This document shows, one piece after another, positions 19,331 through 50,911 of a DNA stretch of 64,000 nt. This DNA comes from Naegleria gruberi (lineage: Eukaryota). Position numbers and translations under genes: made by a program. Where the stretch lies: assembly GCA_000004985.1 (NCBI GenBank), contig GG738888.1, one strand, 5' to 3'. The notes under the pieces are model-generated. The model was not told the origin of the DNA, ran no database searches, and saw only the letters and a list, made by a program, of their open reading frames with translations. Position 1 is the stretch's first letter, and each line of letters begins with the position of its first letter.

Positions 19331-22300
19331 TTATTTGTTGAGTAATTCCTCAAATGCCATCAATTTCTGAGTAATTTCTGAGAAATTGGGTCTATTGCTA
19401 GGAGAGGAATCCCAACAATATTTAACCAATTGAATAAAGGAGAAGACTATTTCGTATTTTGATTTCTCGTTTCCTAAATATTCTTCACACCACTCTTTAC
19501 ATGACAGCAAAGTGGAAAATGGAATAATTGGACGAATTCCTCGAGAAACCAATGCAGGTACCTTGAAACTATTATTCTCTACCTTCTTGTATTCTGAAGT
19601 TTCGTATTCAATTTCTCTGAATAACTTCTTTCTATTCTTTTCTTGATAAATATAAGGATTCTCTTCAAAGAAAATTTCCCAACAAATTATTGCAAAACTG
19701 TAAACATCTGAAGCTGTCGCTGTGTCTGTGGTCATTGAGTTTCCATTCTCTTCGAAATGCATATAAAATAAAGTTCCCAAGTTATTGGTCAGGTTTGTGT
19801 TTTTAGTGAGAGCTCGAGAAAGTCCAAAATCAGCAACTTTACACTTATTGGAATTATCCATTAAAACATTTCCTGGTTTCAAGTCTCTGAATATAGTTAT
19901 TTTGGTTATTTCAATATGGATGTTAAAACTTACCTGTGAATAATGGGAGGTTTCAGTGAATGTAAATAATCCATTCCTTTTGAAATATCCAACAAGATTG
20001 AAATTTTATCCGAAAGCTTAATGTTCGGCAAGCTTCCAATTCTCAATTGATATAAGAAACTTTCCAAAGATCCTTTCGTCATGAATTCCATCACAATCAA
20101 ATAATATCCCTGTAAAAATGAAACTCCATATATAGTAATAATATTTGGATGTTTCAAATTGTGCAATAAAGTTACTTCCTTTAAAAATGATTCCAATTCT
20201 TCCACTTTCTTTACGGCAACTTGATTTTGCTTCCACTTAGCTTTGTAAACTTCACCTCCCGATCCAGATCCGAGTTTCTTCTCAAATTCTAAATCCTTAT
20301 AAGGTATAAATATTTTAGATTCTGTTATAGATTTGATTCCAACAGCCACAGCACTTTCGGATGAATTATTATTAGCTGTATTTCCTGAACTAGACATGTT
20401 TAATGAACTACTTATCGATGCAGGATCACTAAACTCATCCAATTCTCTATAATCACCCAATGAAGGTCTTAATAAATGGAATGGAGAATCTTGACCTTCC
20501 AAATGTTCAGCAGTTAATGACATTTCCATTAGTTTCCTATGAACTTCTTTTTCTTGAGTATTCTTTCGATTCCATCTTCTTGAATTGTAACAGTAAATAA
20601 CACAACAACCAATAGTAGCAACACACATTACAAAAGAAATTGGAACACTCACTGTAATTCCAATAATCCAACCTGTTTCAGATTGTGAACCCAAATCCGT
20701 ACCCGTACTTCTATCTTGGCAATGTTGTCCCTTGTATCCTGATATACACTTGCAATTATCTTTGCCTAAACAGGTCCCATTTCCATGATTACAAACAGAT
20801 GAGTCATTGAATGGAATACCATTACAGGTAAATAATTCACAAAATTGTCCTAAAAAACCAGAGTTGCATTTGCAAACATTAGGCGAAAAACAGACACCTT
20901 GAGAGTTACAGACATTGGTTTTGTTTGCTGAGATTTCATTACATTTAGGGAATTCACATTGAGAACCTGTGTAGTCGGTATCGCATAGGCATGTATCTTT
21001 GGTTATACATTTTCCATGCCCATAACAAACATTGGATGCGTCAGAGGAAAGTTCAAAACATGTTGTAAATTGGCATCTTTCTCCAAAAAAACCAAAATTA
21101 CATTCACATGTATCTGGTGCCAAACATGATCCGTATCCAGAGCAAACTGATCTATTATTCGAAAGTGTTCCAAAACAAATTGGAATGGAACAATCAGAAC
21201 CTCCGTATTTGGAATTACAAACGCAAAGGTTAGGCTCAACACAAGTACCATTAAGATTATTACAGACATTTGAATTATTAGATGGAATTCCAAAGCAAAC
21301 TGGTTGTTCACAATCCAATCCTACAAACTTTCCATTTTCACAGGAACAATAGTCTGGTTTCGTACAATTTCCTTTGCTATTGCAAACTGCTGATTCGTTA
21401 GCACCAATACCATAACATATCGCATATTGACATGATGGCCCTTGATAACCTTGTGAACAATTACATGAATCAAAACCAATACATTGCCCATGACCACTGC
21501 AAACCAATGGAGAATCTGATCCATAGTTGAAGCATTTCCAATGTTCACATTGTAAACCAGATCTTCCAGGATAACATTGACAAGTATTTGGAGATGTACA
21601 ACTTCCATTAGAATTGGTACAAACTGACTCATTAAGAGCTGAAATATTATAACACAACGGAATCTGACATTCCAATCCTTCATAATTTTCTTCACAATTA
21701 CAGATATTGGGTAATATACACTTTCCATTTCCAGAGCAAACTAAACTTCCATTATTCATGATAATTGAAGAATTATTATCTATCTTTCCAAAGCAAACAG
21801 GATATTGGCACTCATTTCCTTTCCAACCAGTTTCACATTCACAATTGTCAGCTTGACTACAATTTCCATGTCCATTGCAAATTAAGGAACTGTTGTATGC
21901 CAAACTCTTTCCAAAGCAAATTGGGTATTGGCATTCGTTTCCTGTAAAACCAGATGGACAGTCACAAATATTTGGTGAAATGCAATTTCCAGTTCCAGAA
22001 CACACTAAACTGTCATCTGCACGCTTTCCAAAACAAATAGGATATTCACAATATTGTCCTGTAAATCCTGTTGGGCATTCACAAAGTCCTGGTTGAGTGC
22101 AATTTCCCACTCCTGAACAAACTCTTGTATCATTGGATACGAAATCACCACACACTGGGAATTGACAATTTGGATAACCCCAACCAGGATTACATTCACA
22201 TTCATTAGTATAGATACAGACACCATGAGAACTACACACAGATGAATCGTTGGAACTAATGCCGAAACAAAATGTAAATGGATACATGAATGGTATTTCG

Positions 22301-23826
22301 AATAATGTGAAGGCATAGTGATCTTGATGGAATGTGTAATTTGAAATTGATTCTGTAAAATAACCGTCTGTGGTTATCAATACATTGACACTCTTTGTAT
22401 CTTCATGCCTTTGCAAAGCCATTGAACTGTAATTTCCATACATGATATATGAAACTTGCCATTCTCCCTTTCTATAATTGGTAATCGATCTTACATTCAC
22501 CTTATACTCCACTTTATTCCTTCCTAACATATCTTTATAGAGACATCTCATTGCAAGGTACAAATCTTTTGAAATTCCTGAAATACTGTAAACTTGAACT
22601 CTTTCACAAGGTCTGTCAAAATTTTCCGCATGATTCATCTCTGAATTGTAGGAAGAATAATATTTGAGTTTCTTATCGTCTAATAAGGTTATACATGTAA
22701 ATGATTTCAACCCTTCATTGTCCATACATGATGTAACAAATTGGTCATTTCCTATCTGTTTCGAATATAAATCAACTTTCAAATCAAATCTGTATGAAGT
22801 ATTGGTCCACAAGTCAAGGATATTTCCACTTGTATCGAATTTAAGAATGTAAAATGAATGAAAATCAACATTGACATTGTCTATGATTGTGAAATTCTTT
22901 TGTTTTCTATCGAGCCAAGTTGTTGTACCGCTATAGTATCCACTCAGATACATTGTGGTATTTGAAATGGTTGCTTGATAGATCCTAACATAGGCAGTAG
23001 AATTGGTATTGTGTGTTTGGAAAGTCCACAATGGTTCCATTTCATAACTGTTCGATTTTCGACGAAATGCTTGGACAAAAGAATTCGAAACCAATTCGTT
23101 ATTTGCATTTGCATCTCTGTAAACCTTAAAAGATCCGTAAGAAAGGTAGGTATCTTCTTTTCCTCTTCCAGAAACATAAACTTCATCTCCTTTGACTAAA
23201 ACACTGAAAGGATTGTAACAATCTTTCGAATAGCAAAGATATTGAGTGTTCCATTGAAGTGTGCCATCATCAAGTGAAAATACAAAGAAAAGAGGACCTC
23301 CTGGTTGAGAAAATGGATGAATCTTGTTTGAAAGTGGCACATAGGCTGAAAGAAATACAAAAGCATATTTTTGATAATCAGAGGAAACTCCAACATCATA
23401 AAACTTGCAATCGTTTGTCTCACAATCTATTGAATATTGCCACAATATCGTTCCATCTGATTCGTTTAGTTTGATTACAAACAATGATTCCCTTGTGAGT
23501 GAATAGGGTGAAGTATTAAGAAATGAGGCACTTGGTTCAGTTTCGTTGGCTTTCGTCCCATTCACAAACTGATCTTCTACATTGACATTTGGATATAAAT
23601 ACAAATTCTCAGTAAATGTTCCACCCACTACCAAGTGTCCACTAGTAGTTGCAGTAAAACATTGGACACGAGCATCCTTTCCAGTCTTTGACGTGAGGAA
23701 CCAATTAATTTTGTGTGGTTGAAGATTTACAGAGGTTTCATGAGAGAAGGACGAGAAAAACACAAGAAACAGAAGAGTGATGAAGAATGACTTGTCGATG
23801 AAGGTGGATTTTGTCTCTAGATTCAT
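19331..23826 (-). CDS. receptor-like protein kinase: signal peptide, N-terminal globular region, ~16 EGF-like Cys repeats, TM helix, TKL-type kinase domain; 2 exons
   Basis: Exon1 23826..19934 (ATG MNLETKST... with A-rich context and signal peptide; track ORF starts earlier at 23889). Intron 19933..19887 (GTAAGT..TTCAG, 47 nt) splits the catalytic loop HR|DLKPGN. Exon2 19886..19331. Repeats of CxCxxG[WF]xGxxC[EQ][YF]P[IV]C; TM GWIIGITVSVPISFVMCVATIGCCVIYCY; kinase motifs VAVKK, HRDLKPGN, DFGLSR. Confidence 0.7.
19887..19933 (-). other. spliceosomal intron (47 nt, GTAAGT...TTCAG) in EGF-repeat receptor kinase
   Basis: Restores HR|DLKPGN catalytic loop; phase 2 (Arg codon ag|a). Confidence 0.75.
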
Positions 23827-28760: not shown

Positions 28761-31700
28761 ATGGAGCAAAACCTAAAGAGAAGTCATGATGACATGGTTG
28801 AGAATGAGCAGAGATCTACTACCTTGTCCTCTGTTGATGCTAGTGTTCAAGAACCGGAAAGGAAAAAGATAAAAGCTAACAATGTTGAAGAACTTGTGGA
28901 GGAGACTAAATATTGGTATCATATTATTGCTAGTTTGGATAATGGTCCAGTTAATTATAAGAGTTTTGATCAATTAGAGAAGGGGCTCACAGATAGGGAA
29001 AAAGTGATTGAAAATATCAATCAATTATGGCATGTTCACAAAGCTAGATTGATTTTGGAAAGTTTGGATTTGTCCAATCCATATTGGAATGAAGATTGGT
29101 TCGAATTAACAAACAATGTTGGTGAATTACCAGATACTGAATATGAAGATGTCAAACTAAAAGATAAGGTTACAGCAGAGGAATTGGGACTAACAAGTGA
29201 AATATCCAAAGATCTACTCAAGGAATATATTAGTAAGAGAGAGGATATTGAATCACACAGCTTATTCTTGGTAGAAAAGCTGTTCAAGAAATGTTTGGTT
29301 CAATCTGTTGAAGAAATCACAGAAATGATAGACAAATGTATTGAAATAGATGAAAAGAATGTTGAGGTTTACTTTAGACAATTAATGGATTCAGATCTGC
29401 CTTATGATATGAGCTCCAGAAAGACAATTCTTGATCAATGGAGCAAGTACATTTTACCACAAATTGTGAAAACTCAAAATGAGTTGAATATGATAGATGA
29501 TCCAGTTAGTTTGTCAACAAACGAAGAATCCAAAACAGTTAGCAAGTTTGTACTTGAAAATGATAGTGAAGATACTGACGCCTTCTTACTGGAGACAATG
29601 CTCTTTGGAGATGAGGAACACATTAAAATAGTCAAGCAAGATGAAAAAGATGATGAAGAGGATTTCAACGATGATTACGTCCCTGATATCTTTTACTGCT
29701 CATATTTATTTGACATGGAGCTTCCTGACGAGAAGGGAAAAATAGGATCAAACTTTTTAGGATTATTGCATTGTGAGCACAACAATTCTAACGAAAACAT
29801 CTACCTTAAAATTATAGAAATTGTGATGAAAATGCATATGATTGGTGTTGCTCCTCAAGAACACCAGGAAATTGAGGTATCAGAATTGAGATTGGCAGTC
29901 TCTTTAATGATTTTGGATTGTCTTAACAAGGAGTTGACTTATTTGATTCTATCTCAGAGTAAAGAATCCACATACATGCTTTATAGACCATTAGTGAGAG
30001 CAATCCTTGACCAATTTATTGTTGACTATTGTAACCCAACCAAGTATGACAAGTATATGTTTGTGATATGCACAAATCCTGACATCCAACCAATGATAAA
30101 TGTCATGTTTGAAGAAGAGTCTGTAGTAGACACTGATAATTTAACATGGGATGTTGTGCAAACTCAAAGAGGTTCATGTTTAGATGAGGAAGAAGAAAAT
30201 AATGACGTACAACAATCAGTAAAAGAAAAACATCCTATTTGGGAGAGTACTGTCGACAAATTGAAGGAAAAATACTTTACACACCAAACAGAGGCACATT
30301 CTAAAATAAGTAGACAGAATTTGGATGATTCAATGTATATTACCTATTATACAGATAGAGACAATGCTATTAGTGAACCATTATCAAATCAAAATTTGGT
30401 TTCCTTTTACAGATATGTAAGTTTTCAAATATTCAAAATCTCTAAAACTTTTTAAAGGATTTTTTCGATTACAGTGAAGAACCATTTACCTATGAACAAA
30501 CAGCTGATAATCTGATTGAAAATAGATCAATAGATTGTTATTACAAGAATGATAAATCTCTACATCTGGATTTAACAAGATTATTGAGAAGAGGTGGTGT
30601 TGCATCATTTGATGAAGGACTACTTCTTGAGGCATATAGTACTTTGAAGAATTATATTTCACTCAGCTTGCAAACTCTTGAAGATATTTCTGAAGATGGC
30701 ATTGTTGAAGTAGATCATGTGGAAAAAGTTGCCAAACTACTGGCTATAAAAGGCGGTACTAATGGAAGAGAGTACATTCGTCTAGAACTTCCATACTATT
30801 ACAAACTAGACTATCAACAAGATACTCCAGTTGCAAAAGAGCTGGATGATGTCAGAGATTTAGAAGAAGATTTATTGAGAGGTACCGAAATTGTTGAACT
30901 TGAACCAGTTAGTGCTAGTACCAATCAAGAAATACCAGAGGGTTTAGGAAAGGATCTCTACAATGCTTTAAATAATGAACAATTTAGTTCATTGTGTGAT
31001 AGTTTTATTCAAACTGAGGATGGTGCCAAGGTTGGAGTTTTTACTCCAATCATTAAAGATAGATTACCAGAGTTTTATAGTCAATACTTTGATAGCGAAG
31101 AAAAGAGAAAGAACGGCCTTTGCATAACATCAGTACATTTTGAAGTTCAGGAGGGAGAACAATTAATCTTTGATGAAGTGGTTATCACCAAATGGTTGAC
31201 TTGCATTTATACTGGTATATTTGAAATCGAGTCTTCAGAAGAAGAGAAAAATATATTAACAATTGAGAAGTTATTGGCCAAATGGGTTCCAAGAGAAGAA
31301 GTCTCTTTGAAAGAACCAAAACATGAAACGCAACCACCACAAGCAACTGCTATAATGATAGACGAAAATGAGGAGGAGGATTCAGAAGAAGAATCAAGTG
31401 AGGAAGATTCAGAAGAAGAAAGCCAAGCTTATCAAGAAGAATCTGATTCAGACTCGGAAGAAGGCATATATAATTATAGTGATGAAGAAGAAGAATCCAT
31501 ATATTACAAAAAAATTAAAGAAGAAGAGGAAAAAACATTTAAATGTGAACCACTTTCTAGACTATTTCTTGATGAAGAAGGAAAGGATTTCTCTCTGGTT
31601 GTGAATAGCCATATAGTTAAAGTTCACAAGTACATTCTTAGCATTAGAAGCTCTTATTTCAAAGTACTATTTTTAGGAAATTTCTCTGACAAGAACATTT

Positions 31701-32332
31701 CAGAATATGATGTTTCAGATTTCTTAAAGAATCCACATTCGTTGGACTTGTTCGTCTACTTTTTGTACCACGACACGTTGGAGAATGAAAACTTTACACT
31801 AGAACATTATAAGTATCAAAATTTGATTGATTTGGAAGAATTTTCGCAATTTGTATTGTCTGAAAGATTGAAATCAGAATGCGTCTCGAAACTTATTAGC
31901 CATTCAACTTTGGAACAAACAGTTGAAATGTTAAGAACAAGTTTAGAAGCAAACAAGGAAGAAGTTTTCAACATTGCACATACCATCCTCCTCAAAACTC
32001 AATATCCATACTTTAATGGCACTATAATTGATGATGTCACCACTCAATACTATCAAGTTATGTGCACTTCTTTAACATTGGAAAACTCTCTTGTAAAATT
32101 GGACTATCTCAACAAGATTGAACAAACAACCACAGCCTTACATCCATTCATACTCAATCAAATCAAATCCCAAATAGAAAACCTTCACTGGTTCATTGCC
32201 AACCGAGCTTCATCTCTCGATAACAAATTTATCCGAACTTTACCTCAACCTGTTCAAGAGTTAATCTCTCGCTTCTTCACGCATGATAATTTGGGCATGG
32301 CAAGTTTTGAGGAGGTAACTATTGAAGAATAA
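28761..32332 (+). CDS. large acidic hypothetical protein (composite of ORFs 28761..30455 and 30584..32332)
   Basis: Downstream ORF has no ATG for ~250 codons and its frame is open back to 30446, so it must be 3' to the upstream ORF (ATG 28761 in cacaaaaaaaATGg context). Two junction models, each needing a single 1-nt correction. One is a canonical 58-nt intron 30417..30474 (GTAAGT...TTACAG) that leaves a 1-nt phase error. The other is read-through with one extra T in the T5 run 30449-30453. Glu/Asp/Ser-rich stretches; no family assigned. Confidence 0.4.
30417..30474 (+). other. putative spliceosomal intron (58 nt, GTAAGT...TTACAG) with 1-nt phase discrepancy
   Basis: Canonical donor, pyrimidine-rich 3' end and AG; as written, splicing gives an immediate TGA. 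Confidence 0.35.
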
Positions 32333-37492: not shown

Positions 37493-40400
37493 CTATTGAC
37501 CTTCAATAATGAGTCTCGATTTTAGAGAGCTCAAAATGGTGCTTATTATGGTAAATGATGGACGTTGTTTTGGATCAGAATTCCAACATTGTGTCATTAA
37601 CTTGATGAACTCTCCAACAATATTTCTAAATCTTTCCTTGCATTGGTCTCGATCGAGTGGAACATCACTACTAGAAAAATCATACTCTTGCACATAGGAG
37701 CTCAAATAGGAATCCATTTCTGTATCATTGCTGAAGGGAATAACTGGTCGTTCTCCTTTTAGAACTCTTGGTAGCACTGTGAAGGGAGAAACTTCATTCT
37801 GTCTCGCTTGTGTAATCTTGGTGTTTTTTGTGTGAATGTATGGATTCTCCTCAAAGAATAATTCATACATGATGATCGCAAAACTGAAAACATCAATGGA
37901 TGGAGCTAGGGTGGAACTTGTATGAGATAGTTCAGAATCTAAAAGTTCTGGAGCTATATAGAATAAAGTGCCCATTCCTGTTGTGGTGTTTGTTTGGTTA
38001 TTACCATTCATTAGTCTACTCAATCCAAAATCGCAAACTTTTGCAGTATTATTCGAATCTAGAAGAATGTTTCCAGGTTTTAAATCTCTGTGAATAATTG
38101 GTGGTTTCAGACTGTGCAAATATTCCATTCCACATGCAACATCAATCAGAAGTGATAATTTAGAAATCAAGTCTAGAGAAATCTCACCCTTCCTACATTG
38201 ACTTATTAAATTCTCAATACTTCCCTTCTCCAAATACTCAACCACAAGATAGTGTTTTTTCGGAGTGATTGAAATTCCATAAAACATTAAAACGTTTGGA
38301 TGACGTAATTTGCACAATAGAGATGCCTCCTTTTCAATGTCATCTCTCAATGCATAATTTTCCACATCAACTCTTAAACATTTGATTGCAACAGTATTGT
38401 GATCCCAACGACCTTTAAAAACTACTCCAGATCCACCCTCTCCAATCTTCTTTTCTATAAACAGCTTATCCAATGTAATTATAAAAACAGCACCACTCTT
38501 TGAAGAACTATCATCACTATTTCTGAGATCTTCCTGTGCATCCACAATGTCATTTTCCAATAATCTCTTTTCAATGTCCTTTTCAGCACGTTCTCTACCC
38601 CTCCAATATCGAATAATTTTAGCTAATTTGTAAACTCCATATCCAACACCTGATAATATAATTAGCAAGCTACAAAATGCGAAAAAGGAAGCTACCACAG
38701 CAACGATAATGATGGACTCATAATTTGGCTTGACCTTACAGATAAATGATGATTCTGAACCATAAGTTGCTGGTGTTGATTCATAATCAACTGGACAAGG
38801 TATAATCTCCAATGGAATATCACTATTCGCATGAAAGAATGAGAGTGTGAGAGATGCCTTAATTGGTTGTGTGAATTGCCTCTCAGAAACTGTAATGAAA
38901 ATTCCCTCCACCACTTCAGAAACTCGTGTCTGTTTGGGAATGGTTGCAGTGATCGAGTCAGTACTCACTGAATTAGAATACACTTCCCACATGTACTCTA
39001 CTGAATTTCCAAAAGTGTCCTTGGATGTCGGTTTCAATGTAAATCTCTGTCCTGGAAAGAGAGTTACCACTCCATTCATTGGTTCAAAATCTCCACTCAA
39101 TTTTCCATTAATTTCTTTAGAGACTTGCCAAGTGATTTGTCTAATTGAGGATCCTATATTTCCACCATAGTTTAGAGCACTATTTCCAGTAAAGTTGCTC
39201 TGCAGAAATTCTTTCTTGACAATTTTGTGGAAGAAAATTCCTCCACCAGAGTAGTCAGCTTGATTATCCGAAATTTCCACATCTTCCCAAAGGCAAGCTA
39301 GAGTATCATATTTCAGGTTGAATGAAATTGCTCCTCCTCTCAATGCTCTGTTCATATGGAATTTGGAGGAATAAATTGCAAACTTGGTATGGAAACCTGT
39401 TCCCGTAAAACTCAAAGCACCTCCATTTCCAAGACATTTCGTTGAGGAGCACATTAAACTGGATGTGATGTTTTCAGTGAGTACTGAATTATTTACAAAG
39501 AGTGTTTCATAGGATGAGAAATTGCCTGAACAGAGTATAGCACCACCACTATTTTTTGCTGTATTTGATCGAAATACTGATTCTCCAATTGCTATATTCG
39601 AATCTATTCCACTAATGGCTCCTCCTCCTGCTGATGAATAATTTTCAATAAACTCTGAAAGGAATACGATGATATCACTCCCATAGGATGAGAGAGCTCC
39701 ACCAGTCTTACCATTTCTGTTTCTAATAAATTTCGAGGAGGTAACCAGAGTTTTGTGAGAGGAAAGTGAGCTGGACAATATAGCTCCTCCCAAGACAGAT
39801 ACGTTATCTGTGAAAGTAGATTCGACAATATAGGTTGCTACTACATTGCTCAACAGTAAAACTCCAGTAGAACCTCTATTATGGGCAAATATGCATCTTC
39901 TCACAATGACATTCCTCGAATTTCTAACAGTGACAATGCTTCCCTCTGTATTTTGACTTCCAACGAATTGACAATCTTGAAATTGGACCTCAATTGATTC
40001 TCCAATTGTTATAATATTTCCATTTGATTTGCCAAATATTGTGTGAGAAATTCTGACAACATTCGAGAAGAGAATATTCAAACTTCCATCATTAATTGTA
40101 CTCGTTTTCGTATTAACCAAGCAACCAATCATCACAATCTCCTTAACTTCCTCTATAAATACCAATTTGTCAATATTTATAGTCCCATTGAGGAACCACA
40201 TATTTGTGGCAGCCAATGTGAACTGATCTAGAAAGAAAGACAACTCAGACTCTGTAAATATCGAAATCTCTTCATATTTAAACTCAACTACAGGTCTCGA
40301 ATCATCAAAATCATATCTAACCTTCTTAAATAATGAAAGATGAGCGTCAGTTTCAAATTGTCCACTAATTTTCGAATTTTGCACAATGACATAATTTCCA

Positions 40401-41134
40401 AGAAATTTCCCACCTTTTAGTGTGCAATTTTCAATAAATGCATTTCGATTCTGTTGTAATATTTGCAAATTGAAACCCTTGAATATTGTAACTGCCTTAT
40501 CAAAGGTTTCTCCATAATCAATAAAATATGATTCACAATTAATTGTGGAATTGATCTTGCTTTCCAATTCGATGAATAGTTTGATATCACGCAATAAATT
40601 ATTTGTGGTTAATTCTTGAATTTTCAAATTGTTTTGACAATTATTCGAAACTATATCCGATTCCACATTAATTTTCATGTAAATGATGGCACCGGGACGT
40701 TCCACAGATGGAACATTTCCTATTTGATATTCAATTTCATTCGTAAAATAATTAATTAATTCCTTCATTGATGAAAAACTAATTGTTGAATTTAAAGTGG
40801 ACGAAACATTCGAAAAGGTATATTCGAAATCCAAAGATAAACAATTTACACTAAAAATTGATTCCTCCCGTTGTGTTTTACAAATTTCGTATTCCATCAC
40901 TTTCGAATATTGTGCCATATTTAATAATCTCGTAACCTCTACTTCTGCATTCGAATAGCCTTTATCCGCCGATAGAAATGAAGGTAGTTTATAATTGGTA
41001 TCAAATGGTGAAATGTAATCGGAAAGAGAATAATTAGAAATTGAAATTATATTCGAAGGTCCAATAACCACTAAAAGAAGCAAAATAAACACACTAGAAG
41101 GTGTCAGTGTTTCGTTTCTGTATATTGTAGTCAT
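37493..41134 (-). CDS. receptor-like protein kinase with Pmp-type (FxxN / GGA[ILV]) parallel beta-helix ectodomain, TM helix, TKL kinase domain; single exon
   Basis: 1213-aa ORF; signal peptide; at least 7 tandem units with FxxN followed by GGAI/GGAL; TM IIIVAVVASFFAFCSLLIILSGVGYGVY; kinase motifs VAIKC, HRDLKPGNILLD, CDFGLSR, FYIAPE. Kinase domain paralogous to 19331..23826 (YLHSLKPPIIHRDLKPGN in both). Confidence 0.7.
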   Translation of the reverse strand: MTTIYRNETLTPSSVFILLLLVVIGPSNIISISNYSLSDYISPFDTNYKLPSFLSADKGYSNAEVEVTRLLNMAQYSKVMEYEICKTQREESIFSVNCLSLDFEYTFSNVSSTLNSTISFSSMKELINYFTNEIEYQIGNVPSVERPGAIIYMKINVESDIVSNNCQNNLKIQELTTNNLLRDIKLFIELESKINSTINCESYFIDYGETFDKAVTIFKGFNLQILQQNRNAFIENCTLKGGKFLGNYVIVQNSKISGQFETDAHLSLFKKVRYDFDDSRPVVEFKYEEISIFTESELSFFLDQFTLAATNMWFLNGTINIDKLVFIEEVKEIVMIGCLVNTKTSTINDGSLNILFSNVVRISHTIFGKSNGNIITIGESIEVQFQDCQFVGSQNTEGSIVTVRNSRNVIVRRCIFAHNRGSTGVLLLSNVVATYIVESTFTDNVSVLGGAILSSSLSSHKTLVTSSKFIRNRNGKTGGALSSYGSDIIVFLSEFIENYSSAGGGAISGIDSNIAIGESVFRSNTAKNSGGAILCSGNFSSYETLFVNNSVLTENITSSLMCSSTKCLGNGGALSFTGTGFHTKFAIYSSKFHMNRALRGGAISFNLKYDTLACLWEDVEISDNQADYSGGGIFFHKIVKKEFLQSNFTGNSALNYGGNIGSSIRQITWQVSKEINGKLSGDFEPMNGVVTLFPGQRFTLKPTSKDTFGNSVEYMWEVYSNSVSTDSITATIPKQTRVSEVVEGIFITVSERQFTQPIKASLTLSFFHANSDIPLEIIPCPVDYESTPATYGSESSFICKVKPNYESIIIVAVVASFFAFCSLLIILSGVGYGVYKLAKIIRYWRGRERAEKDIEKRLLENDIVDAQEDLRNSDDSSSKSGAVFIITLDKLFIEKKIGEGGSGVVFKGRWDHNTVAIKCLRVDVENYALRDDIEKEASLLCKLRHPNVLMFYGISITPKKHYLVVEYLEKGSIENLISQCRKGEISLDLISKLSLLIDVACGMEYLHSLKPPIIHRDLKPGNILLDSNNTAKVCDFGLSRLMNGNNQTNTTTGMGTLFYIAPELLDSELSHTSSTLAPSIDVFSFAIIMYELFFEENPYIHTKNTKITQARQNEVSPFTVLPRVLKGERPVIPFSNDTEMDSYLSSYVQEYDFSSSDVPLDRDQCKERFRNIVGEFIKLMTQCWNSDPKQRPSFTIISTILSSLKSRLIIEGQ

Positions 41135-41252: not shown

Positions 41253-44200
41253 TTACAATTTGAAGGCAGCAGTCATGATGGATTCAATTTCCTTCAAATG
41301 GTCATACTTCAAACCAGTAGCTGGAGCAGAGGCAGCATTTCTACCAATATATTTGATAAGGTTATATCTGTTATCACCGTGGACAACAGTATTGATTGCC
41401 TTATTAAGTCTTGGAGCAACATAGGTCTTTGAAGAATATTAATAAAAACAAAATACTATGGAAATTATATACTTACATAGGCACCCATGTTTTCATGTTC
41501 TTCTTGAATCCAAGTCCAGTTAACAGTCTTCATCCATTCCTTGTCCCATTTGTCCATAACTTGATATAATTGTTCGAATGGGAATGGACTCAATTGTTCC
41601 AATCTGATAATCATAACTTCATTTTCCATATTCTTCTTGGCTCTTTCTTCAAACAAGTCATAGTAAATCTTACCACTACAGAAAAGAACCTTCTTAACCT
41701 TTGTGATATTAGCATGTTTGTAATCATCAGTCAAAACTCTTTGGAAGATGGTTCCTTCATCGAATTCAGACAAATTGCTGACACATTCCTTCTTCTTCAA
41801 GAGAGTCTTTGGTGAGAAGACAACGAGTGGTTTTCTGAACTTTCTCTTCATTTGTCTTCTGAGAACGTGGAAGTAATTAGCAGGTGTAGTACAATTGACA
41901 ACACACATATTAACTCTCTTTTGAACAAGTTCGTCAGTGTTAATATCACTGTCACATAATTGGAGGAATCTTTCAATTCTACCACTTGAATGTTCTGGAC
42001 CAGCTCCATCATAACCATGTGGTAAGAGAAGAGTCATACCACTGCATAAACACCATTTGTCTTCACCAGAATTGATGAAAGTATCAATGATGATTTGAGC
42101 ACCATTAAAAAAGTCACCAAATTGCATTTCATTGACAGAGAAATTGTTTGGATTATCAATAGTATAACCATATTCAAAGCCCATAACAGCAAATTCAGAA
42201 AGTGGAGATTGAGCCAATTCAAATCTTCCTCTAGCACCTGGAATGGCATCCAAAAGTGGGAGAACTCTCTTTTCTGATTCTTGATCTACAAATTCCAAGT
42301 GTCTTTGATTGAAAGTACCTCTGATAACATCTTGACCACTCAATCTGACAGTATAACCTTCATCCAAGAGGGAACCAAAGGCCATAACTTCAGCAGTTGC
42401 CCAATCAACATTAACATCCTTATTATCCTTTTGGAGAGCTTGTAATCTTGAACCAATGTGATGCTTTTCCAAATGCTTGTGAACATTAAATCCTTCAGGA
42501 ATCTTGACACTGAAAATGGCAATTTCCTTCAGTCTATCAATATTGTAACCAGTCATTGGAAGAGAAAGCTTTGAAAAGTCAGAAGCTTGAATAATATTAT
42601 GCCAATCTCCGAGGAAATAACGCTTTTCTGGCTTGTATCCTTCAACTGCCTTGAATTCAGCATCCAAATATTGATTACATTTATCCTTGATTTGTTGAAC
42701 TTCTTCAGTAGTGACAATATTCTTACCAATCAAATCTTCAGTGTAGGTAGCTGGGAATGTTGGCTTCTTTCTAATAACTTGGTACATCTTTGGTTGAGTG
42801 AATGCAGGTTCATCCAATTCATTGTGACCATGTCTTCTATAACCAACCAATTCAACAATAATATCCTTAGCGAACTTATTTCTGTATTTAGCAGAAATGC
42901 TCATAACCTTCTTAACAGCTTCAACATCTTCAGCATTGACAGCAAGAATTGGACAACCAACCATTTTACCAACATCTCCTGAATATCTTGTACTTCTGGA
43001 AAGAGTTGGAGAGGTTGTGAAACCAATTTGATTGTTCAAAATAATGTGAATAGTACCACCAGTTCTGAAAAGTGGCAATCTAGATAAGGTAAATGTTTCA
43101 GCAACGATACCTTGACCAGCAAATGAAGCATCACCATGCATTAAGATACAAGCAGCATTAGAACCATGACTTTGCTTGGCACGAGTCTTACCAAGAGCAA
43201 CAGGATTGATAGCTTCAAGGTGAGATGGATTATTCAAGAGATGGAGTTGCACCTTCTTATTATGATAATCAAGTTCAGTACTAACACCAAGGTGAGACAA
43301 GACATCACCAGTGGCAACCAATTCCTCAGGGAATTCACTATATCCCTTAACCTTATGGAAGAGAGCTCTAGTTGGGAAATTCAATAAACCAGTCAAGAGA
43401 TTTAATCTACCTCTGTGTGGCATACCCAAAATAATATCGGAAATATCACTATTGGCCAATTCTTCAAAAACAACATCCATAGCATAAATCATTGATTCAC
43501 AACCTTCCAAACCATATCTCTTAACAGATGGGAACTTTTTAGCCATGAAATGATCAAAAGCTTCACTTTCAACCATTAAAGACATGGCTCTCTTTTGTTC
43601 TTCATTGGTCATGTGATCGGCTTGCAATGATTCCAATTGTTTAGATAACCACATTTGTTCCTTTGTAGTTTCCAAGTGAGAGAATTGAGCAGCAATATTT
43701 CCACAATAAACATCTCTCAAGTGATCAACAATTTCAGGAATGGTTGCTTGTTTCTTTGGTATGGTCTTTTCACCAATATGAACAATACCATCAATATCAA
43801 CTGGTGTAGTTCCCAATGATTCTATATCCTTTAAATGATAAACTCCGGGATTTAATTCAATAGTTGTTCCTCTTTTTTGTTATCAGTATGATGATGATGA
43901 TGATTTTTAATATTAAATAATAATAATAATATTAAACAATAGTAATATTATTGTAAATATTAATATTTTGATCAAAATAATTGTCATCAAATATGATTAA
44001 ATAATATCAAAACAACCTACTTTTTAGGAACATTCAATCCGAGAGGATCAATATTAGCTTCCAAATGTCCATAATTTCTATAGGCTCTCACCATTGAATG
44101 AACTCTACACAACAATTCATCCTTACTCACAGCAGAGGAGGAAGCATAACATCTCATGGCAGTTGCAATAAATTCCTGTTGGAGAAGTTGATGAGAAGTT

Positions 44201-44802: not shown

Positions 44803-46425
44803 TCAATCCAGATCATCAATAGTAGGTCCAATACTATTGGTTCCCATAATTGGAATTGTATCTGAAGCCATTTGAAGCAATAATTCTTCAATTTCCTCAG
44901 GTTTGAGTGGTACTGGTCGAGAGGGAATGAAAGAATCCTCTGTGCCATAAGTTGGACTTCTGGCAGACACTGTCATATTCAAATTCAGGGAAAAGAAGAG
45001 TTCGAAAATGAGTTCAACCTCAAAATGAGCATCTTGATAATTGTCGGGAATGTCCAATCTTAAAGTCCCAATCTTTTCACAATCTTTCACGAATTTTCTG
45101 TTCCCCTCATAAATGTCAATGCTTATAAATTTCTCATTTCCGGTTAATGGTATTGAAATAGTTTGAGTTTTCGAATAAGGCACTGATGTTCTAGGAACAA
45201 TAACTATCATTTCACCATTTTCGTTTGAAATTCCATAATTACAGCATGTATTATCGTTCATTAGTATATTTGGGTCATTACTAATATAGCTTTCAATACA
45301 GCCACCAAGTTCAATAGGACATTCTATCCAATCGCATATTTCTGCTTCTGGTTGTTCTGTAGAAATCAATTTTCTAATCATTTCTTTTAACTTGGGAATT
45401 CTAGTTGATTTCCCACACACGATAATGTATTCAAAAGTCTCCTTATTCATGAATTCAAGTATTTCTACAATAAGTCTATTGATAACGTCTAGAGTCAATT
45501 CTTCAAATAAGCTTTTGCTAAATTCTGGAATATTTAAATCAATGTTATTGTAAAATTTAGGAATATGTAAATGCCAGGAATCATGATCTGATAACTTGGC
45601 TTTAACTTCTTCGCAAGCTCTTCTCAATTTGATCATGGAGAGTGGATTTTCCTGGATTGAATATTTGCTTTCCCGTTTAAATAGGTCATCACAATATTCC
45701 ATCATTTTCAAAGTGATGGCTTCTCCTCCCAATTCATCATTCCTATAAAATCGTTCCTTAAATATTTGCCCTTCATCAATAGAAAATGCACCTATTTTCA
45801 AAGATTGACCTACATCCAAATACAGAGCTTTCTTGTCATTCATTGATGGAAAGAAAAGATTATAAGCAATTAATGAAAGTCTTGATTCTGAATAAACATT
45901 CATTACATTATAGCCCCATTCACTAACTTTCTTTCTAATTAATTGATAAACTGCATAGGGAAAGTAATCTGGAACTGCTATTGCCAATCGATTTTTCATA
46001 TTTGCACAATTTCGTTCCAACATTGTTTTCATAATTTTCAAATATAAATCTAGAGGTGAAACAGTGATGCCATTGCCTATTTCAATTTCAATTTCTTCTT
46101 CTCTACTGTTCATGAACTGCAAAGCACGATATGGGGAATATATGTGGTTATCATCTCGTTGCTGCTTTCCATTAATTATTAAATTTGCAATATTGGTTAC
46201 TAGTCGATGAGGATTCAAATCATCATCACTTGGTTGAATTTCTCTTCCAATTTTTTCATCATCAAATTCATCCGACAACGACAACGATAGCAAGATTATT
46301 GCTTCATCTTCTTCGAGCAATTTATAATCAAAGAGTCGGAATCTGTTCCGAGATGATTCCTTCAAAGTAGAACTGACCAGTGTTGCATGTGAATTGCCAA
46401 CATGCAAACAGCATGGTGCATTCAT
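44803..46425 (-). CDS. divergent Hsp70-superfamily (actin-like ATPase) protein
   Basis: 540 aa; IAVPDYF, LDVGQSLKIGAFSIDEG (phosphate-2-like), IIVCGKSTRIPKLKEMIRK (connect/adenosine motif), IYEGNRKF in a putative substrate-binding half; canonical N-terminal DLGTTNS absent, so HSPA12-like or degenerate. Confidence 0.5.
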   Translation of the reverse strand: MNAPCCLHVGNSHATLVSSTLKESSRNRFRLFDYKLLEEDEAIILLSLSLSDEFDDEKIGREIQPSDDDLNPHRLVTNIANLIINGKQQRDDNHIYSPYRALQFMNSREEEIEIEIGNGITVSPLDLYLKIMKTMLERNCANMKNRLAIAVPDYFPYAVYQLIRKKVSEWGYNVMNVYSESRLSLIAYNLFFPSMNDKKALYLDVGQSLKIGAFSIDEGQIFKERFYRNDELGGEAITLKMMEYCDDLFKRESKYSIQENPLSMIKLRRACEEVKAKLSDHDSWHLHIPKFYNNIDLNIPEFSKSLFEELTLDVINRLIVEILEFMNKETFEYIIVCGKSTRIPKLKEMIRKLISTEQPEAEICDWIECPIELGGCIESYISNDPNILMNDNTCCNYGISNENGEMIVIVPRTSVPYSKTQTISIPLTGNEKFISIDIYEGNRKFVKDCEKIGTLRLDIPDNYQDAHFEVELIFELFFSLNLNMTVSARSPTYGTEDSFIPSRPVPLKPEEIEELLLQMASDTIPIMGTNSIGPTIDDLD

Positions 46426-46510
46426 TTTTTTGTTTAATGTTTACAAAATATTGACCAATATTAAAGGTAAAAATGAAATATTTAATTTGATTAGTTCACA
46501 CAGTAATACT

Positions 46511-48229
46511 TTACCGCACCACTAGAAAATGAATACATTGAATAAGTTTCCCAAGTTGTTTCTTGAGCATTGTATCAAAATTTGGGGAATCACTAATTTT
46601 AAGTTCAGAAATGCTTCTGTTTTGAGCATAGCTTATCAATGCCTGTAATGTCATATTGCTCAACTTGTTAGATTTAATGTGGAGAGTTGAAATTTTTGGT
46701 TCAAAGTTCAAATAATCAATTATTCCTGAATCAGAAACACCACAATTATTAGCTTCCAATTTAATTATGGATAGAGGGCTCAATAAAGATAAACCAGTAT
46801 CTCCAATACTTGGATTGTTAGAAATATTCAATTCTTTCAACTGATTCATCTTTGAAATGACATCACAACATTTATACGAAACATAATTATGACTAATGTC
46901 TAGATGGATAAGATTCCTAAATTCACTTCTGAATAATTCAATAACTGATTCATCTCCAATATCATTTGATCCAACGTGTAAATATTCCAACTCATTACAA
47001 TTACTCAAATATTTCAATCCATTTCCAATTTTGTTATTATTTAACATTAAATATTTCAGTAATTTTAAATTTCCAAAGTTTCTCAAACCCTCTTCACCAA
47101 TTAAACTTTCTTTCAAAGATAAATTTTCAAGTTTGACATTTTCTGATAGATAATTAGCTCCAACATCTCCAACTTGATTACTTGACAAGTTTAATATTTT
47201 GAGTTGAGAAAGTTTATAAAAATATTTCAAACCTTGCCCACCAATTAAATTATTCGAAAGATTAAGTTCTGTTAAATTAGAAAGTGAGCACAAATTAATT
47301 GCTCCTTCATTTCCAATCCTATTATTCTGTAAATTCAAACTTTTCATATTTTCCAAATATGGAAAATTACAAGCAGTTATTAAATTGTTATCCAAATGGA
47401 GCTCCTCAAGCTTCTTCAATGTTGAAAGGTCTTTAACTGCTTCCTCTTTAATTCTTCCCTTGGAAATGAAATGAAATTTCTTTAAATTTCCAAGTGGAGA
47501 AATAAATTTCATCTCTTCTTCAAATAAATTGTTTCTAAATGTTAAACAAAATAGATCAGTAATGGATTCCAATTTCCGAATATGTTCAAAAATTGATTTC
47601 TCTATAAAAGTGTTACAAATTCCAAAGTTCTTTAACTTGTTGGCGAATTTGCTTTCGAATATTGAAATGTATGATTTTGAATTCAATTGACCATGCAGAA
47701 ATAACCTCTCCAATGGCCAATCCAATTGATCAAATAATAAATCTTCAACTTGTACATTTACGCGCTCTGGTGACCATGTTTTAATGAAGAGCGTTTTAAT
47801 CTTGGACTTGGTTTCGAATAGTAATCGAATACTATTAATATTCATTTTCACTAATTGCACATTTTCCAATGTCTTCAATTTGGAAAATTCAACAATTACA
47901 TCATTACTGCAATTAGACAGTTTCAATGACTTTAAATTGGTCAACTTGGAAATAAACTCTATATTCGAATCTAAATATTCGCTCGGATGGCATTCTAAAT
48001 GAGTTATTTTGTGTAATTCATCGGAATGTTTCGTTAAAATAATTTCTAAATGTTTACTTTCTTCAGAAAATTGCATTGGAAAGTAAAATGTTGGAGTTGA
48101 TTTGTAATTTTCATTCCAATTTTTACAAACTAATCTTACAGTATTTAAAATCCATGTATATTCGAAATTGGAAAGAATTTGATCGAATATTATTTCGGAG
48201 GGAATTACACCAAACTCTCCTTTCATCAT
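46511..48229 (-). CDS. F-box-like / leucine-rich repeat (RNI-type) protein
   Basis: Probable ATG at 48229 (MMKGEFGVIPSEIIFDQILSNF...VCKNWNENY F-box-like); >12 LRRs (LNLSNNLIGGQGLKYF, LNLSSNQVGDVGANYL, LHVGSNDIGDESVIEL). Confidence 0.5.
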   Translation of the reverse strand: MMKGEFGVIPSEIIFDQILSNFEYTWILNTVRLVCKNWNENYKSTPTFYFPMQFSEESKHLEIILTKHSDELHKITHLECHPSEYLDSNIEFISKLTNLKSLKLSNCSNDVIVEFSKLKTLENVQLVKMNINSIRLLFETKSKIKTLFIKTWSPERVNVQVEDLLFDQLDWPLERLFLHGQLNSKSYISIFESKFANKLKNFGICNTFIEKSIFEHIRKLESITDLFCLTFRNNLFEEEMKFISPLGNLKKFHFISKGRIKEEAVKDLSTLKKLEELHLDNNLITACNFPYLENMKSLNLQNNRIGNEGAINLCSLSNLTELNLSNNLIGGQGLKYFYKLSQLKILNLSSNQVGDVGANYLSENVKLENLSLKESLIGEEGLRNFGNLKLLKYLMLNNNKIGNGLKYLSNCNELEYLHVGSNDIGDESVIELFRSEFRNLIHLDISHNYVSYKCCDVISKMNQLKELNISNNPSIGDTGLSLLSPLSIIKLEANNCGVSDSGIIDYLNFEPKISTLHIKSNKLSNMTLQALISYAQNRSISELKISDSPNFDTMLKKQLGKLIQCIHFLVVR

Positions 48230-48390
48230 TTTTTTAACTCGAATATTTTGCAACTTTCTGTTTTGCTCTCTTCCGTATTACTGTTATTAGATTGAATATT
48301 CCTCTGAATTAATTGATGATTTTCAAAATCTTGTCTGTTTCGTTTTTGCTCATTTTTACATCTTGAACATTGATGATTTAATTATGATGT

Positions 48391-50911
48391 TTATACAACT
48401 TGATTTGCTTGTTTGAGTTTTTCAATTTCTTGTTTGAGAAGTTCATTTTCATTTCTGAGTGTGGATATTTCATTACTCAAGAGTAAGTTTTCTTGTTTTA
48501 GGGTTGTGTTTTGTTGAATAATATCATAATAGTTGATTAATTGTTGAATATTGAGAAGATCATCCAGTTCCTTGTGAATATTTTCAGAATAATCATTAAT
48601 TTCACCACGGAGATATTTTGTTAAATTGTCGATAATAATCTTGTAAGTAAAGCAGTCCAATCTTTTACGAGGATCTCTTTGAATCATGGTGATGAGACAT
48701 CTGGTAAGTATTTCATTCACACCCCAAGATTTGTTAATCTGCTTATCAATGGTCATTCTTATGGCATGGTGCACTCTCATTTCTCCCTCAGCTGTTACAA
48801 CAGCGCTGTGAAAATATAATCCCTCCTCTGAACTAAAATATGTGAAATTCGAATCAAATTGTGAAATGTCAGTACCTCCAATAAATTGTTTGCTTACTTT
48901 CAACAAACAATCAGTCAATAATTCCAAAAATATACATCCTAATGAAAAGATATCTGATGCTGTTGAAATCTCCCTCTTGTTTTGAATTAATTTCTCCTGA
49001 TATTCATGAACTAAATGTTGTTCGTTGGATTTTTCATAGGTTGAATCTGAAACCTCTGGAGCCATATAAGTATACTTTCCCACATTGATTGTAATTGATT
49101 TTCCTACTTCAATAACTCTCGATTGATCAAAATCAATAATCTTAAACTTGTCACCAATTTTTAAAATATTATTAGGATCCAAATCTCTATTATAATTATA
49201 ATAATAATAAATATTAAAATAATTACCTATGTGCAATGTTTTGATTGTGAACTGATTGGACTGCCTGAAGGATTTTTGCAAACATTTCCAGTACCTCAAT
49301 CATTTTATCCTTTTCCAAGGATGTTCCAACTCCGCTGCTATGGTTTCTTTCTATAATATTTCTTAAAGTTTCTTCACCCAACTCCATGATGGAAAATAAA
49401 TGTTTCGTCTTAATCTTATCTTGACCATATTCCAGAATACCACATTCAAAACAATTAATCTTTCCATCAATTTGTCTCTTTAAGAATTCAATTTTAGCAT
49501 CCATCTTTTTCATGTCATACTCTGGTTGGAATTTAATCTTTACAGCAACAAAAACTTCTCTACGTTTATCAAAAGCTTTGAATACTACACCCTCACCTCC
49601 AAATCCTAAAGAAGAAATCAACTCGTAATTTTTAACTTTCTTCTGCGTAGTAAAAATTTGGAACGACGAAATGACCTTCTTACTGTCACCTGTTGTTTTC
49701 ATATACTCGCTTATCAGCATTTTCCAATCCCAGTTTGGATTTTCATGTTTCAAAATTCGCTTAATAAGAAATACAATTCCAGGGTGTTCCTTTTTCGAAT
49801 AGTGGTGATAGGGAAAATCGTCGACTATCGTCTTTAGAGCTTCCTTAAAGTGTTTTTTACCAACAGGATGTTTAGGTGACTTGGATTCTATATGTTGTTC
49901 CAACTTTATGCAAAATAAGTGGTAATCCAAATCCGCAATTGTTTCAGTTTCAATTTTCAAACTACTTTCGTTCAGTTTCTTCAAAATCATCAGCATGGCA
50001 AATGTTTGCACAAATTTCACACTATAGGTAAATGAAGAAAATATTCCTTTTGAAATAATTTCAGGTTTCTTATCTTGAAAAAGAAAAGGAATCAATCCAC
50101 TCTCATCCAAAGTCTCCTCCTTAAATGCATTCATTACTGTTTTTAAATTTCCGTGGAATATAATCAATTTATCTGCCTTACAAGGATTTCCCTTTGGCAA
50201 ATATTTGAAAACTCTATAATTCAAAGCTACAGCCTCCAACACAACTTGTCGATCAGTCTTTAATTCCTCAGAAGCAAACATGAATGAGAAAGGCTCATGT
50301 TGAATGGCCATAAACACAACTTCCTTATCCCTTCTCAATTCTTCAGAGGCACTTTTGAAAGCAATTCTATCACTCTTCAAAGCTAACATGACAATTTCCC
50401 TATCATTTCGAAATTCATCTGAAATGTCCTGAATAGCACCAGGAGCACTCTGAATGGCTGCCATGACAACTTCCCTGTCCTTCTTCAATTCATCCCCGAC
50501 CAAAAACAACTCCGAAGCTGCTGCATTATTTTGATTATCCTCTTTTTCATGATTTTGTTGTGAATGATGATGCTGATGATTTTTAAAAGCAGGTGCCGAT
50601 GAAGAATTCTCATCAATTCGTTTTTTAGTCAAAGCCGCCAAAACTACTTGTTTATCGTGGCGCCATTTTTCTGAAATTAATTTCAATGAAAAATCAAATT
50701 TTACAGCTGCGTATTGTAGTATGAAATTTCTATCCAATTCTTCCCGCGCTTTTTCAGAGCTTATCTGCAAGACTTGAGCTGATTTACTCTTTTCCAAGGC
50801 TTGGAGAAGAAAGTCACGATCATTCCGAAGTTCGTCTGGTAGTTTGGCATAATTATATGAGGTTGGATTTTGGATAATATCTTTCAGGTAGCGTTCTCTA
50901 CCTGGAGCCAT
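48391..50911 (-). CDS. DUF4116-repeat protein kinase (N-terminal KxDREvv repeats, C-terminal atypical kinase domain and coiled coil), 2 exons
   Basis: Exon1 50911..49227 (ATG in A-rich context; repeats LRNDRDFLLQAL, LKKDREVVMAAI, FRNDREIVMLAL, LRRDKEVVFMAI, LKTDRQVVLEAV; then LGFGGEGVVFKAFD...VAVKI). Intron 49226..49187 (GTAATT..ATAG, 40 nt) again inside HR|D (IAHR|DLDPNN). Exon2 49186..48391 has DFD instead of DFG, MAPE, and a C-terminal heptad coiled coil. Confidence 0.65.
49187..49226 (-). other. spliceosomal intron (40 nt, GTAATT...ATAG) in DUF4116-kinase
   Basis: Restores IAHR|DLDPNN; phase 2, same position/phase as intron 19887..19933. Confidence 0.65.

Follow-up and report, generated by a model that had tools for sequence, protein, structure and literature searches.

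Phase-2 introns at (H/Y)|RDL of protein kinases have been listed for chicken fps, T. gondii PK1, mouse PKC-delta, PKN, and P. falciparum PKA (de Roos 2007 supplement, PMC1800838). The hosts are AGC-group and tyrosine kinases of animals and Apicomplexa (T. gondii PK1 is left unclassified here), and the introns are of ordinary length. The P. falciparum case is the only one on this list that we confirmed in DNA; the PKAc gene reads TAT AG|gtac...gaag|A GAT, and base-by-base comparison showed that codon and phase are the same as those of two introns in a 64-kb stretch of Naegleria gruberi DNA, hereafter referred to as the window.

The window contains three protein kinase genes, which we designate K1, K2, and K3 (Table 1). 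K1 and K3 share with the listed genes the interrupted codon, that for the Arg of H/YRD, as well as phase 2; the Naegleria hosts, however, are heterolobosean, K1 being a TKL receptor kinase and K3 a DUF4116 kinase, and their introns are of 40 to 47 nt. The splice junction of K1 is CAC AG|gtaagt...ttcag|A GAC, which yields H-R-D, and that of K3 is CAT AG|gtaatt...aatag|A GAT, whereas K2 reads YLHSLKPPIIHRDLKPGN without interruption. The preliminary description of this locus had placed introns of 47 nt (K1) and 40 nt (K3) at the HRD Arg codon in the same phase and had reported an uninterrupted motif in K2, and coordinates and sequence are as described in each case. At least five kinase groups, drawn from three supergroups, have an intron at HR|D. 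Given that the same position and phase recur in kinases of other groups and supergroups, the coincidence between K1 and K3 is real but ordinary, one more case of an intron site already known across the superfamily. A literature search found no paper on a shared intron position in these N. gruberi genes. A motif scan of the window revealed no kinases besides K1 to K3; at 4547(+) and 19293(-), strings resembling HRDxxxxN occur outside long open reading frames and were taken as chance.

Table 1 Coordinates of the three kinase genes, their exons and introns, and their predicted domains within the window.
Feature	Position	Strand	Description
K1 gene	19331..23826	minus	EGF-repeat TKL receptor kinase, 1482 aa once spliced
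K1 exon 1	19934..23826	minus	Signal peptide, 520-aa NH2-terminal region, EGF-like repeats, transmembrane helix, and NH2-terminal part of kinase domain, ending with first two bases of HRD Arg codon; based on ORF and translation, Pfam EGF_2, EGF_TEN, and PK_Tyr_Ser-Thr, and repeat count
K1 EGF-like region	20719..22269		13 Cys-repeat units; Pfam EGF_2 and teneurin-type EGF
K1 transmembrane helix	20587..20670		
K1 intron	19887..19933	minus	47 nt, GTAAGT...TTCAG; splits HRD Arg codon AGA in phase 2
K1 exon 2	19331..19886	minus	Third base of Arg codon, D-LKPGN, DFG, activation segment, C-lobe, stop codon
K1 DFG	19823..19831		
K2 gene	37493..41134	minus	Intronless type-I receptor kinase, 1213 aa, TKL; contains signal peptide
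K2 PMP-type repeats	~39155..39997		
K2 transmembrane helix	38630..38713		
K2 TKL kinase domain	37550..38458		
K2 HRD codons	38084..38092		CAC AGA GAT
K3 gene	48391..50911	minus	DUF4116-repeat kinase, 826 aa once spliced
K3 exon 1	49227..50911	minus	DUF4116 repeats, linker, kinase N-lobe to first two bases of HRD Arg codon
K3 DUF4116 repeats	~50192..50854		Five repeats (PF13475), 146.6 bits versus cutoff of 24.9
K3 intron	49187..49226	minus	40 nt, GTAATT...ATAG, 5% GC; splits HRD Arg codon AGA in phase 2
K3 exon 2	48391..49186	minus	D-LDPNN, DFD, APE, C-lobe, COOH-terminal tail, stop codon
K3 DFD	49126..49134		
K3 COOH-terminal tail	48394..48579		Coiled-coil-like, called from sequence

On the evidence of the genomic sequence, the two intervals appear to be very short U2-type GT-AG introns at the same codon and in the same phase, with one intron per gene in the present models. 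The alternative to introns would be that the exons represent distinct or decayed genes or that K1 or K3 is a pseudogene. Such a reading might draw on the donor of the K3 intron, GTAATT, which differs from the GTAAGT or GTATGT of the other candidate introns in the window, and on its low GC content and its length, the shortest in the window. It is nevertheless extremely improbable. The ten other candidate introns in the window (41 to 87 nt) resemble those of K1 and K3 in size and donor. Exons taken singly encode half a kinase domain, and splicing rebuilds the full domain in a single frame of 1482 (K1) or 826 (K3) amino acids, with all conserved C-lobe residues retained in both downstream exons. 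Retention of either intron would generate AGG TAA, an immediate in-frame stop ahead of the catalytic Asp. A metagenome contig from a related strain (L002), which is 98 to 99% identical to K1, shows a sole indel across the gene, a frame-breaking 4-nt insertion that lies in the intron and extends it to 51 nt, and the four differences in 1017 nt of flanking spliced coding sequence are all synonymous. The restriction of the indel to the intron together with the synonymous nature of the exon differences supports the K1 intron. The K3 intron is supported by the public gene model that employs it: spliced K3 is identical over all 826 amino acids to XP_002673831.1/EFC41087.1 (“protein kinase”) of N. 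gruberi NEG-M.

The K2 protein is identical to XP_002673827.1/EFC41083.1 (NAEGRDRAFT_80827, 1213 amino acids). Both K2 and K3 are thus already public in the N. gruberi annotation, with the K3 intron included in the gene model, and these identities place the window in the published NEG-M genome. Exact matches to K1, sought with the spliced 1482-residue sequence and with exon 1 only (the latter query contained a stop codon, which possibly spoiled the match), were absent from the public protein collection. A search of a phage collection with K1 DNA, which has no bearing on a eukaryote, likewise gave no match. The public gene model for K1, if any, may differ from our spliced model.

K1 and K2 are paralogues within the TKL group, both being Ser/Thr kinases of the single-pass receptor type, and differ in their ectodomains, which are EGF-like and PMP-type, respectively. 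Their kinase domains are 43% identical, both contain HRDLKPGN, and the scores obtained with the PK_Tyr_Ser-Thr profile were 170 bits for K1 and 171 bits for K2. The solved structures that best matched the K1 kinase domain were those of CTR1, TAK1 (MAP3K7), TNNI3K, ZAK, and DLK (E values of 1e-36 to 1e-29), which are cytosolic kinases, unlike the single-pass receptors K1 and K2 with their EGF-like or PMP-type ectodomains. In the activation segment of K1, HFE replaces APE, and its 520-residue NH2-terminal region showed no Pfam match. The Chlam_PMP (PF02415) match in K2 scores 34 bits (cutoff, 20.6), a sum over weak repeats, none of which is individually significant.

The three genes had been described as TKL-type kinases in which different modules were shuffled onto one kinase. 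Pfam matches agree with the assignment of EGF-like, Pmp, and DUF4116 domains to K1, K2, and K3, respectively, and K1 and K2 are indeed paralogous kinases with distinct ectodomains. The picture of three modules on one kinase fails for K3, however, because K3 lies outside the TKL family. K3 is only 21 to 24% identical to K1 and K2 and scores 85 bits with Pfam Pkinase compared with 36 bits for PK_Tyr_Ser-Thr. Its best PDB matches are TTK, PfMAP2, and CDK, which are weak (E of ~1e-11, ~45 bits) in comparison with the values of ~1e-35 for K1 with CTR1 and TAK1, and no TKL kinase was present among the 60 PDB matches listed for K3. K3 is a cytosolic DUF4116-repeat kinase that belongs to a separate Naegleria-expanded family. 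TTK/Mps1 and CDK are its nearest structural relatives, but K3 is distinguished from them by HRDLDPNN, DFD, the DUF4116 repeats, and the coiled-coil-like tail, and we do not claim orthology to TTK.

None of the nine kinase domains examined, whether of closer relatives or chosen for comparison, contains the HR|D intron. At the DNA level, it is absent from the K2-like genes of N. fowleri and N. lovaniensis, from both kinase domains of the N. lovaniensis K3-family gene P0262, and from the K3 relative P0123. K2 itself also lacks the intron, as do an environmental HRDLDPKN relative (L010), a plant STY-like TKL kinase from Genlisea, with 15 introns but none at HRD, and a crustacean Src-like kinase. 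L010 was obtained by a scan of metagenomes with a K3-family profile, in which it was the sole close relative, five other loci being weak (26 to 29% identity) and excluded. The K1 and K3 introns showed no sign of recent copying or of an introner-like element, their similarity score (6.0) being that of shuffled sequences (5.7 ± 2.7). The lack of similarity is itself uninformative with regard to descent.

An ancestral intron retained in two genes and lost in one, as proposed in the preliminary description, is too simple, in that the ancestor of K1 and K3 precedes the kinase groups and the intron is absent from all nine related or comparison domains. A modified version, in which the HR|D intron predates the divergence of the kinase groups and was subsequently lost many times, has in our judgment an even chance of being correct. 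The ancestral kinase domain would then have carried an intron that later disappeared from most lineages, K2 and the other Naegleria relatives examined among them, possibly by reverse transcript-mediated loss or by way of retroposed paralogs; within the window, it would have been kept solely by K1 and K3. The CAC AGA GAT of K2 is the exact remnant expected after precise intron loss. Between 30 and 50% of N. gruberi intron positions are common to other supergroups (PMC3174169), and 20 to 35% of LECA introns are common to pre-LECA paralogs compared with a parallel-gain baseline of ~5% (PMC9120149). Intron evolution after LECA has generally been characterized by more loss than gain (PMC9120149), and parallel gain accounts for only about 5 to 20% of shared positions (PMC3488318). 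We tentatively suggest, at somewhat less than even probability, that the HR|D phase-2 intron is a relic of a single intron in an ancestral eukaryotic kinase gene, before the split of TKL, AGC, TK, and “Other” kinases, that survives in Discoba, Alveolata, and Metazoa.

Against an old site, parsimony within each family prefers one gain over several losses, given that all closer relatives examined lack the intron. The introns of K1 and K3 would in that case be independent and relatively recent in the Naegleria lineage, inserted in parallel at the invariant protosplice sequence CAY-AG|A-GAY that HRD provides in every kinase gene, and the animal and apicomplexan cases would be further independent hits; we consider this quite possible, if somewhat doubtful. 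Parallel gain is a documented phenomenon (PMC3488318, PMC9120149), the two introns are unrelated in sequence, and the junctions CAG|AG (K1) and TAG|AG (K3) are near the MAG|R consensus in an AT-rich genome. In these genes, Arg is preferentially encoded by AGA (17 to 27 of 33 to 44 Arg codons), and HRD is invariant, a combination that makes for an unusually permanent protosplice site. Estimates of parallel gain may not apply to such a site, and its published rarity may therefore not hold at HR|D. Those estimates and the predominance of loss nonetheless weigh against parallel gain, as does the high proportion of N. gruberi positions shared with other supergroups. Many independent hits would also be needed to fill the site in at least five kinase groups and three supergroups, and the coding sequence of K3 offers 104 AG|R sites among 2481 possible intron positions. 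Pure coincidence, with unrelated introns falling at homologous positions by chance in the absence of both site preference and shared ancestry, is very unlikely. The feature was admittedly picked post hoc from a 64-kb window in which genes are numerous and candidate introns number around a dozen, but the probability of an exact coincidence ranges from ~1/2500 for uniform placement to ~1/100 for AG|R sites only, before correction for this post hoc choice, and the site is occupied in the kinases of other organisms as well. The published listing already suggests an enrichment of kinase introns at this codon. Present sequences do not separate ancient inheritance, the chances of which we put at about half, from parallel gain, to which we attach a probability appreciable but short of half.

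With K2 and K3 already annotated and the intron position catalogued for distant kinases, the observation carries little weight alone. With the Naegleria cases, the known hosts of the HR|D phase-2 intron extend to a third eukaryotic supergroup and to two further kinase groups, and the site provides a handy test of whether introns at an invariant protosplice site are anciently inherited or gained in parallel. If the origin from a single ancestral intron were true, few datable introns would be older, and this one could be used as a marker to order the kinase duplications that preceded LECA.

K3 had also been described as a possible atypical kinase or pseudokinase on the basis of HRDLDPNN and DFD, both of which are indeed present. 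The equivalents of PKA residues K72, D166, N171, D184, E208, and D220 are kept in K3 as well as in P0260, P0261, P0263, and P0123. Asp is found at the equivalent of K168 in K3, and Asp or Glu at that of G186 in the family, and these residues are shared by the paralogues from N. gruberi and by L010, the environmental contig. The K3 family in Naegleria conserves HRDLDPxN and DF(D/E). We rejected the notion that K3 is a pseudokinase because it retains the Lys of VAIK, the Asp of HRD, the catalytic Asn, and the Asp of DFG and because the odd residues are conserved family-wide. K3 is better regarded as atypical than as an obvious pseudokinase, catalytic activity itself not being readable from sequence. 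A full-text literature search for “HRDLDP” returned no paper, and one for “DUF4116” yielded nothing relevant by title or abstract among the matches listed. The charge reversal of the catalytic-loop Lys (HRDLDPxN) and the acidic residue at the DFG Gly in this DUF4116-repeat family may be of interest to kinase specialists. The column of the alphaC Glu is not fixed in K3 and its relatives. The source of one N. gruberi paralogue of K3 names it “TTK family protein kinase.”

Removal of one intron each from the EGF-repeat receptor kinase gene (K1) and the DUF4116-repeat kinase gene (K3) yielded single open reading frames of 1482 and 826 amino acids, respectively. Both introns are phase 2 and split the Arg codon of the catalytic HRD motif. 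The junction sequences and the restored frames bear out the preliminary description, which had placed introns of these sizes at the same codon and phase, and the PMP-repeat receptor kinase gene (K2) is uninterrupted at this motif, as had also been proposed. The window is AT-rich (GC content of ~33%), its genes are closely packed, and its introns are few and very short. The sizes and donors of ten further candidate introns in the window (41–87 nt, GTAAGT or GTATGT) indicate that the K1 and K3 introns match the local pattern, with the K3 intron being the extreme in the window (donor GTAATT, 5% GC). The spliced K3 product is identical across 826 residues to XP_002673831.1 / EFC41087.1 ("protein kinase [Naegleria gruberi]"), the public gene model using the K3 intron exactly, and the K2 protein is identical to XP_002673827.1 / EFC41083.1 (NAEGRDRAFT_80827), which assigns the window to the published genome of N. 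gruberi NEG-M.

Coordinates of the kinase genes, their neighbours and related loci (^ marks an intron position)
Feature	Coordinates	Strand	Remarks
K1 exon 1	23826..19934	-	ORF/splice model
K1 intron	19887..19933	-	47 nt, GTAAGT...TTCAG, CAC AG^A GAC (H-R-D)
K1 exon 2	19886..19331	-	ORF/splice model
K1 N-terminal ectodomain region	22267..23826	-	520 aa
K1 activation segment	19700..19760	-	GTLFYMHFEENGN
BTB protein	30584..32332	+	neighbouring gene
Stand-alone DUF4116 gene	34285..36342	-	685-aa ORF
CHIP-like gene	36634..37463	+	TPR repeats, then U-box
CHIP-like gene, probable intron	37071..37132	+	62 nt, GTATGT...AAAG, phase 2
K2	41134..37493	-	no intron; HRD encoded by CAC AGA GAT
2-Oxoglutarate dehydrogenase E1	41465..43816	-	neighbouring gene
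Hsp70-like protein	44803..46425	-	neighbouring gene
LRR protein	46511..48253	-	neighbouring gene
K3 exon 1	50911..49227	-	ORF/splice model
K3 intron	49187..49226	-	40 nt, GTAATT...ATAG, CAT AG^A GAT
K3 exon 2	49186..48391	-	ORF/splice model
RCC1-repeat protein	51449..53050	-	neighbouring gene
Kelch-BTB protein	61358..63787	-	neighbouring gene
N. fowleri K2 orthologue, PMP-like part	VFQX01000067.1 (L001) 1067..2956		629 aa
N. fowleri K2 orthologue, kinase part (P0002)	VFQX01000067.1 (L001) 3001..4800		530 aa
Environmental K3 relative	L010:2-700		HRDLDPKN...DFE

A metagenome contig (L002, run ERR1078381) is 98–99% identical to positions 18148..20394 of the window, and its sole indel relative to the K1 gene is a 4-nt insertion in the intron (51 versus 47 nt). 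Over 1017 nt of spliced coding sequence there are four differences, all of which are synonymous and at third positions, with no amino acid changes. As judged from this sequence comparison, the pattern is that expected of a non-coding interval between exons under purifying selection. The organism sampled by L002 and the further contig L003 (ENA ERZ929261, PRJEB11402) is 98–99% identical to strain NEG-M over this region, with indels only in the intron and intergenic DNA. Retention of either the K1 or the K3 intron produces AGG TAA, a stop directly ahead of the catalytic Asp. Given that phase 2 and a GTAA donor always yield xxG TAA on retention, an unspliced transcript of either gene would encode a protein truncated just before this residue; the stop is a generic outcome of phase and donor and no evidence for regulation.

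Pfam agreed with the earlier assignment of three different NH2-terminal modules: EGF-like repeats (13 units) followed by a transmembrane helix and kinase domain in K1, Chlam_PMP repeats followed by a transmembrane helix and kinase domain in K2, and five DUF4116 repeats followed by a kinase domain and a coiled-coil-like tail in K3. The NH2-terminal region of the K1 ectodomain had no Pfam match. K1 and K2 share 43% identity in their kinase domains, whereas identity to the K3 domain is only 21% for K1 and 24% for K2. The best solved-structure matches for K1 were the TKL kinases CTR1, TAK1, TNNI3K, ZAK, and DLK (E of 1e-36 to 1e-29), and those for K3 were TTK/Mps1, a Plasmodium MAP kinase, and CDKs, all weak (~1e-11); K3 also scored far higher with Pkinase (85 bits) than with PK_Tyr_Ser-Thr (36 bits). 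The description of all three as TKL-type kinases therefore holds for K1 and K2 but is false for K3. Different ectodomains have been shuffled onto a common TKL kinase in K1 and K2, but K3 is a kinase of another kind, to which the proposed shuffling does not extend.

The activation segment of K1 has HFE at the usual APE position, whereas the canonical YIAPE is present in the paralogue K2. The K2 architecture is kept in N. fowleri, where two adjacent annotated genes, a PMP-like model and a kinase model (P0002), appear to represent a single split orthologue. The annotated introns of P0002 (84 and 123 nt) and of the N. lovaniensis protein P0005 (75 nt) have lengths divisible by three, tblastn runs straight across both of those in P0002, and they may be annotation artefacts. 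The window also contains a DUF4116 gene with seven repeats (Pfam, 188 bits) and no kinase domain; given its location ~12 kb from K3, the repeat module occurs also as a separate gene close by.

An intron at the HRD position is already known from other kinases. According to a supplementary table (de Roos 2007, PMC1800838), phase-2 introns at (H/Y)^RDL are common to chicken fps and Toxoplasma PK1, to mouse PKC-delta and Toxoplasma PK1, and to mouse PKN and P. falciparum PKA. Given that this table does not state which codon is split, we read the DNA of P. falciparum PKAc (L008) directly: the sequence ...GTT TAT AG^A GAT TTG AAA, with an intron running from gtac to gaag, splits the Arg codon identically to K1 and K3. 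With the site catalogued and the K2 and K3 models public, K1 and K3 add a new instance of it, of low interest overall. The intron was absent from K2, P0002, P0005, both kinase domains of the N. lovaniensis K3-family protein P0262, the single-ORF DUF4116-kinase P0123, the environmental relative L010, and an Armadillidium Src-like kinase, and none of the 15 introns of a Genlisea STY-like TKL lies at HRD.

The shared position in K1 and K3 is unlikely to be due to chance alone, with a probability of exact coincidence of ~1/2500 for uniform placement in the K3 coding sequence and ~1/100 if only its 104 AG^R sites are considered. Ancient inheritance followed by numerous losses, to which we give about an even chance, is favoured by occupation of the site across three supergroups and several kinase groups. 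It is also favoured by published estimates: 30–50% of N. gruberi intron positions are common to other supergroups (PMC3174169), parallel gain accounts for only ~5–20% of shared positions (PMC3488318), and 20–35% of LECA introns are common to pre-LECA paralogues, compared with ~5% as the baseline for parallel gain (PMC9120149). Separate acquisition of the two introns at a hot spot is a serious possibility, if short of an even prospect. The HRD motif does not vary, and Arg is preferentially encoded by AGA in the K1, K2, and K3 genes, so that every kinase gene in an AT-rich genome permanently carries CAY-AG^A-GAY as a protosplice site; moreover, the intron bearer is the lone exception in each family among the genes examined, which renders gain more parsimonious. 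The K1 and K3 intron sequences are unrelated and uninformative in this regard. The ancestral phase-2 intron originally proposed is plausible, but it would need to be far older than was implied and is inseparable from recurrent gain.

No functional link was seen between the kinases and the neighbouring E1, Hsp70-like, LRR, RCC1, BTB, and Kelch-BTB genes. The two ORFs of the CHIP-like gene are probably joined by an intron.

The K3 family includes at least six other N. gruberi members, P0260 (60% identity) followed by P0261, P0263, P0122, P0264, and P0121/P0138, with one member being named "TTK family" by its source; remoter members are found in N. lovaniensis and environmental assemblies. Public accessions of N. 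gruberi K3 paralogues include XP_002670182, XP_002679510, XP_002677467, XP_002670476, and XP_002670766. HRDLDPxN and DF(D/E) are conserved among the N. gruberi paralogues (including P0260, P0261, P0263, and P0122) and L010, and in the remoter members the corresponding motifs are HRDLK and D(F/L)D. A full-text literature search for the string HRDLDP gave no papers. In an alignment with PKA, the family keeps K72, D166, N171, D184, E208, and D220, whereas Asp takes the place of K168 (the catalytic-loop Lys), a charge reversal, and an acidic residue, Asp or Glu, that of G186 (the DFG Gly); the alphaC Glu position is variable. In K3 itself, the VAIK Lys is K458, and the two substituted positions are D565 and D582. 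Judged by the standard Lys/Asp/Asp criterion, K3 is predicted to be an active but atypical kinase and not a decaying pseudokinase, which would favour the first of the two options, atypical or pseudo-kinase, initially put forward. The paralogue P0264 (XP_002670766.1), encoded outside the window, has two tandem kinase domains. Domain 1 contains HRDLDPKN, but NFN replaces DFD with loss of the metal-binding Asp, and domain 2 is canonical (HRDLKPQN), so that P0264 may be a pseudokinase-kinase pair.
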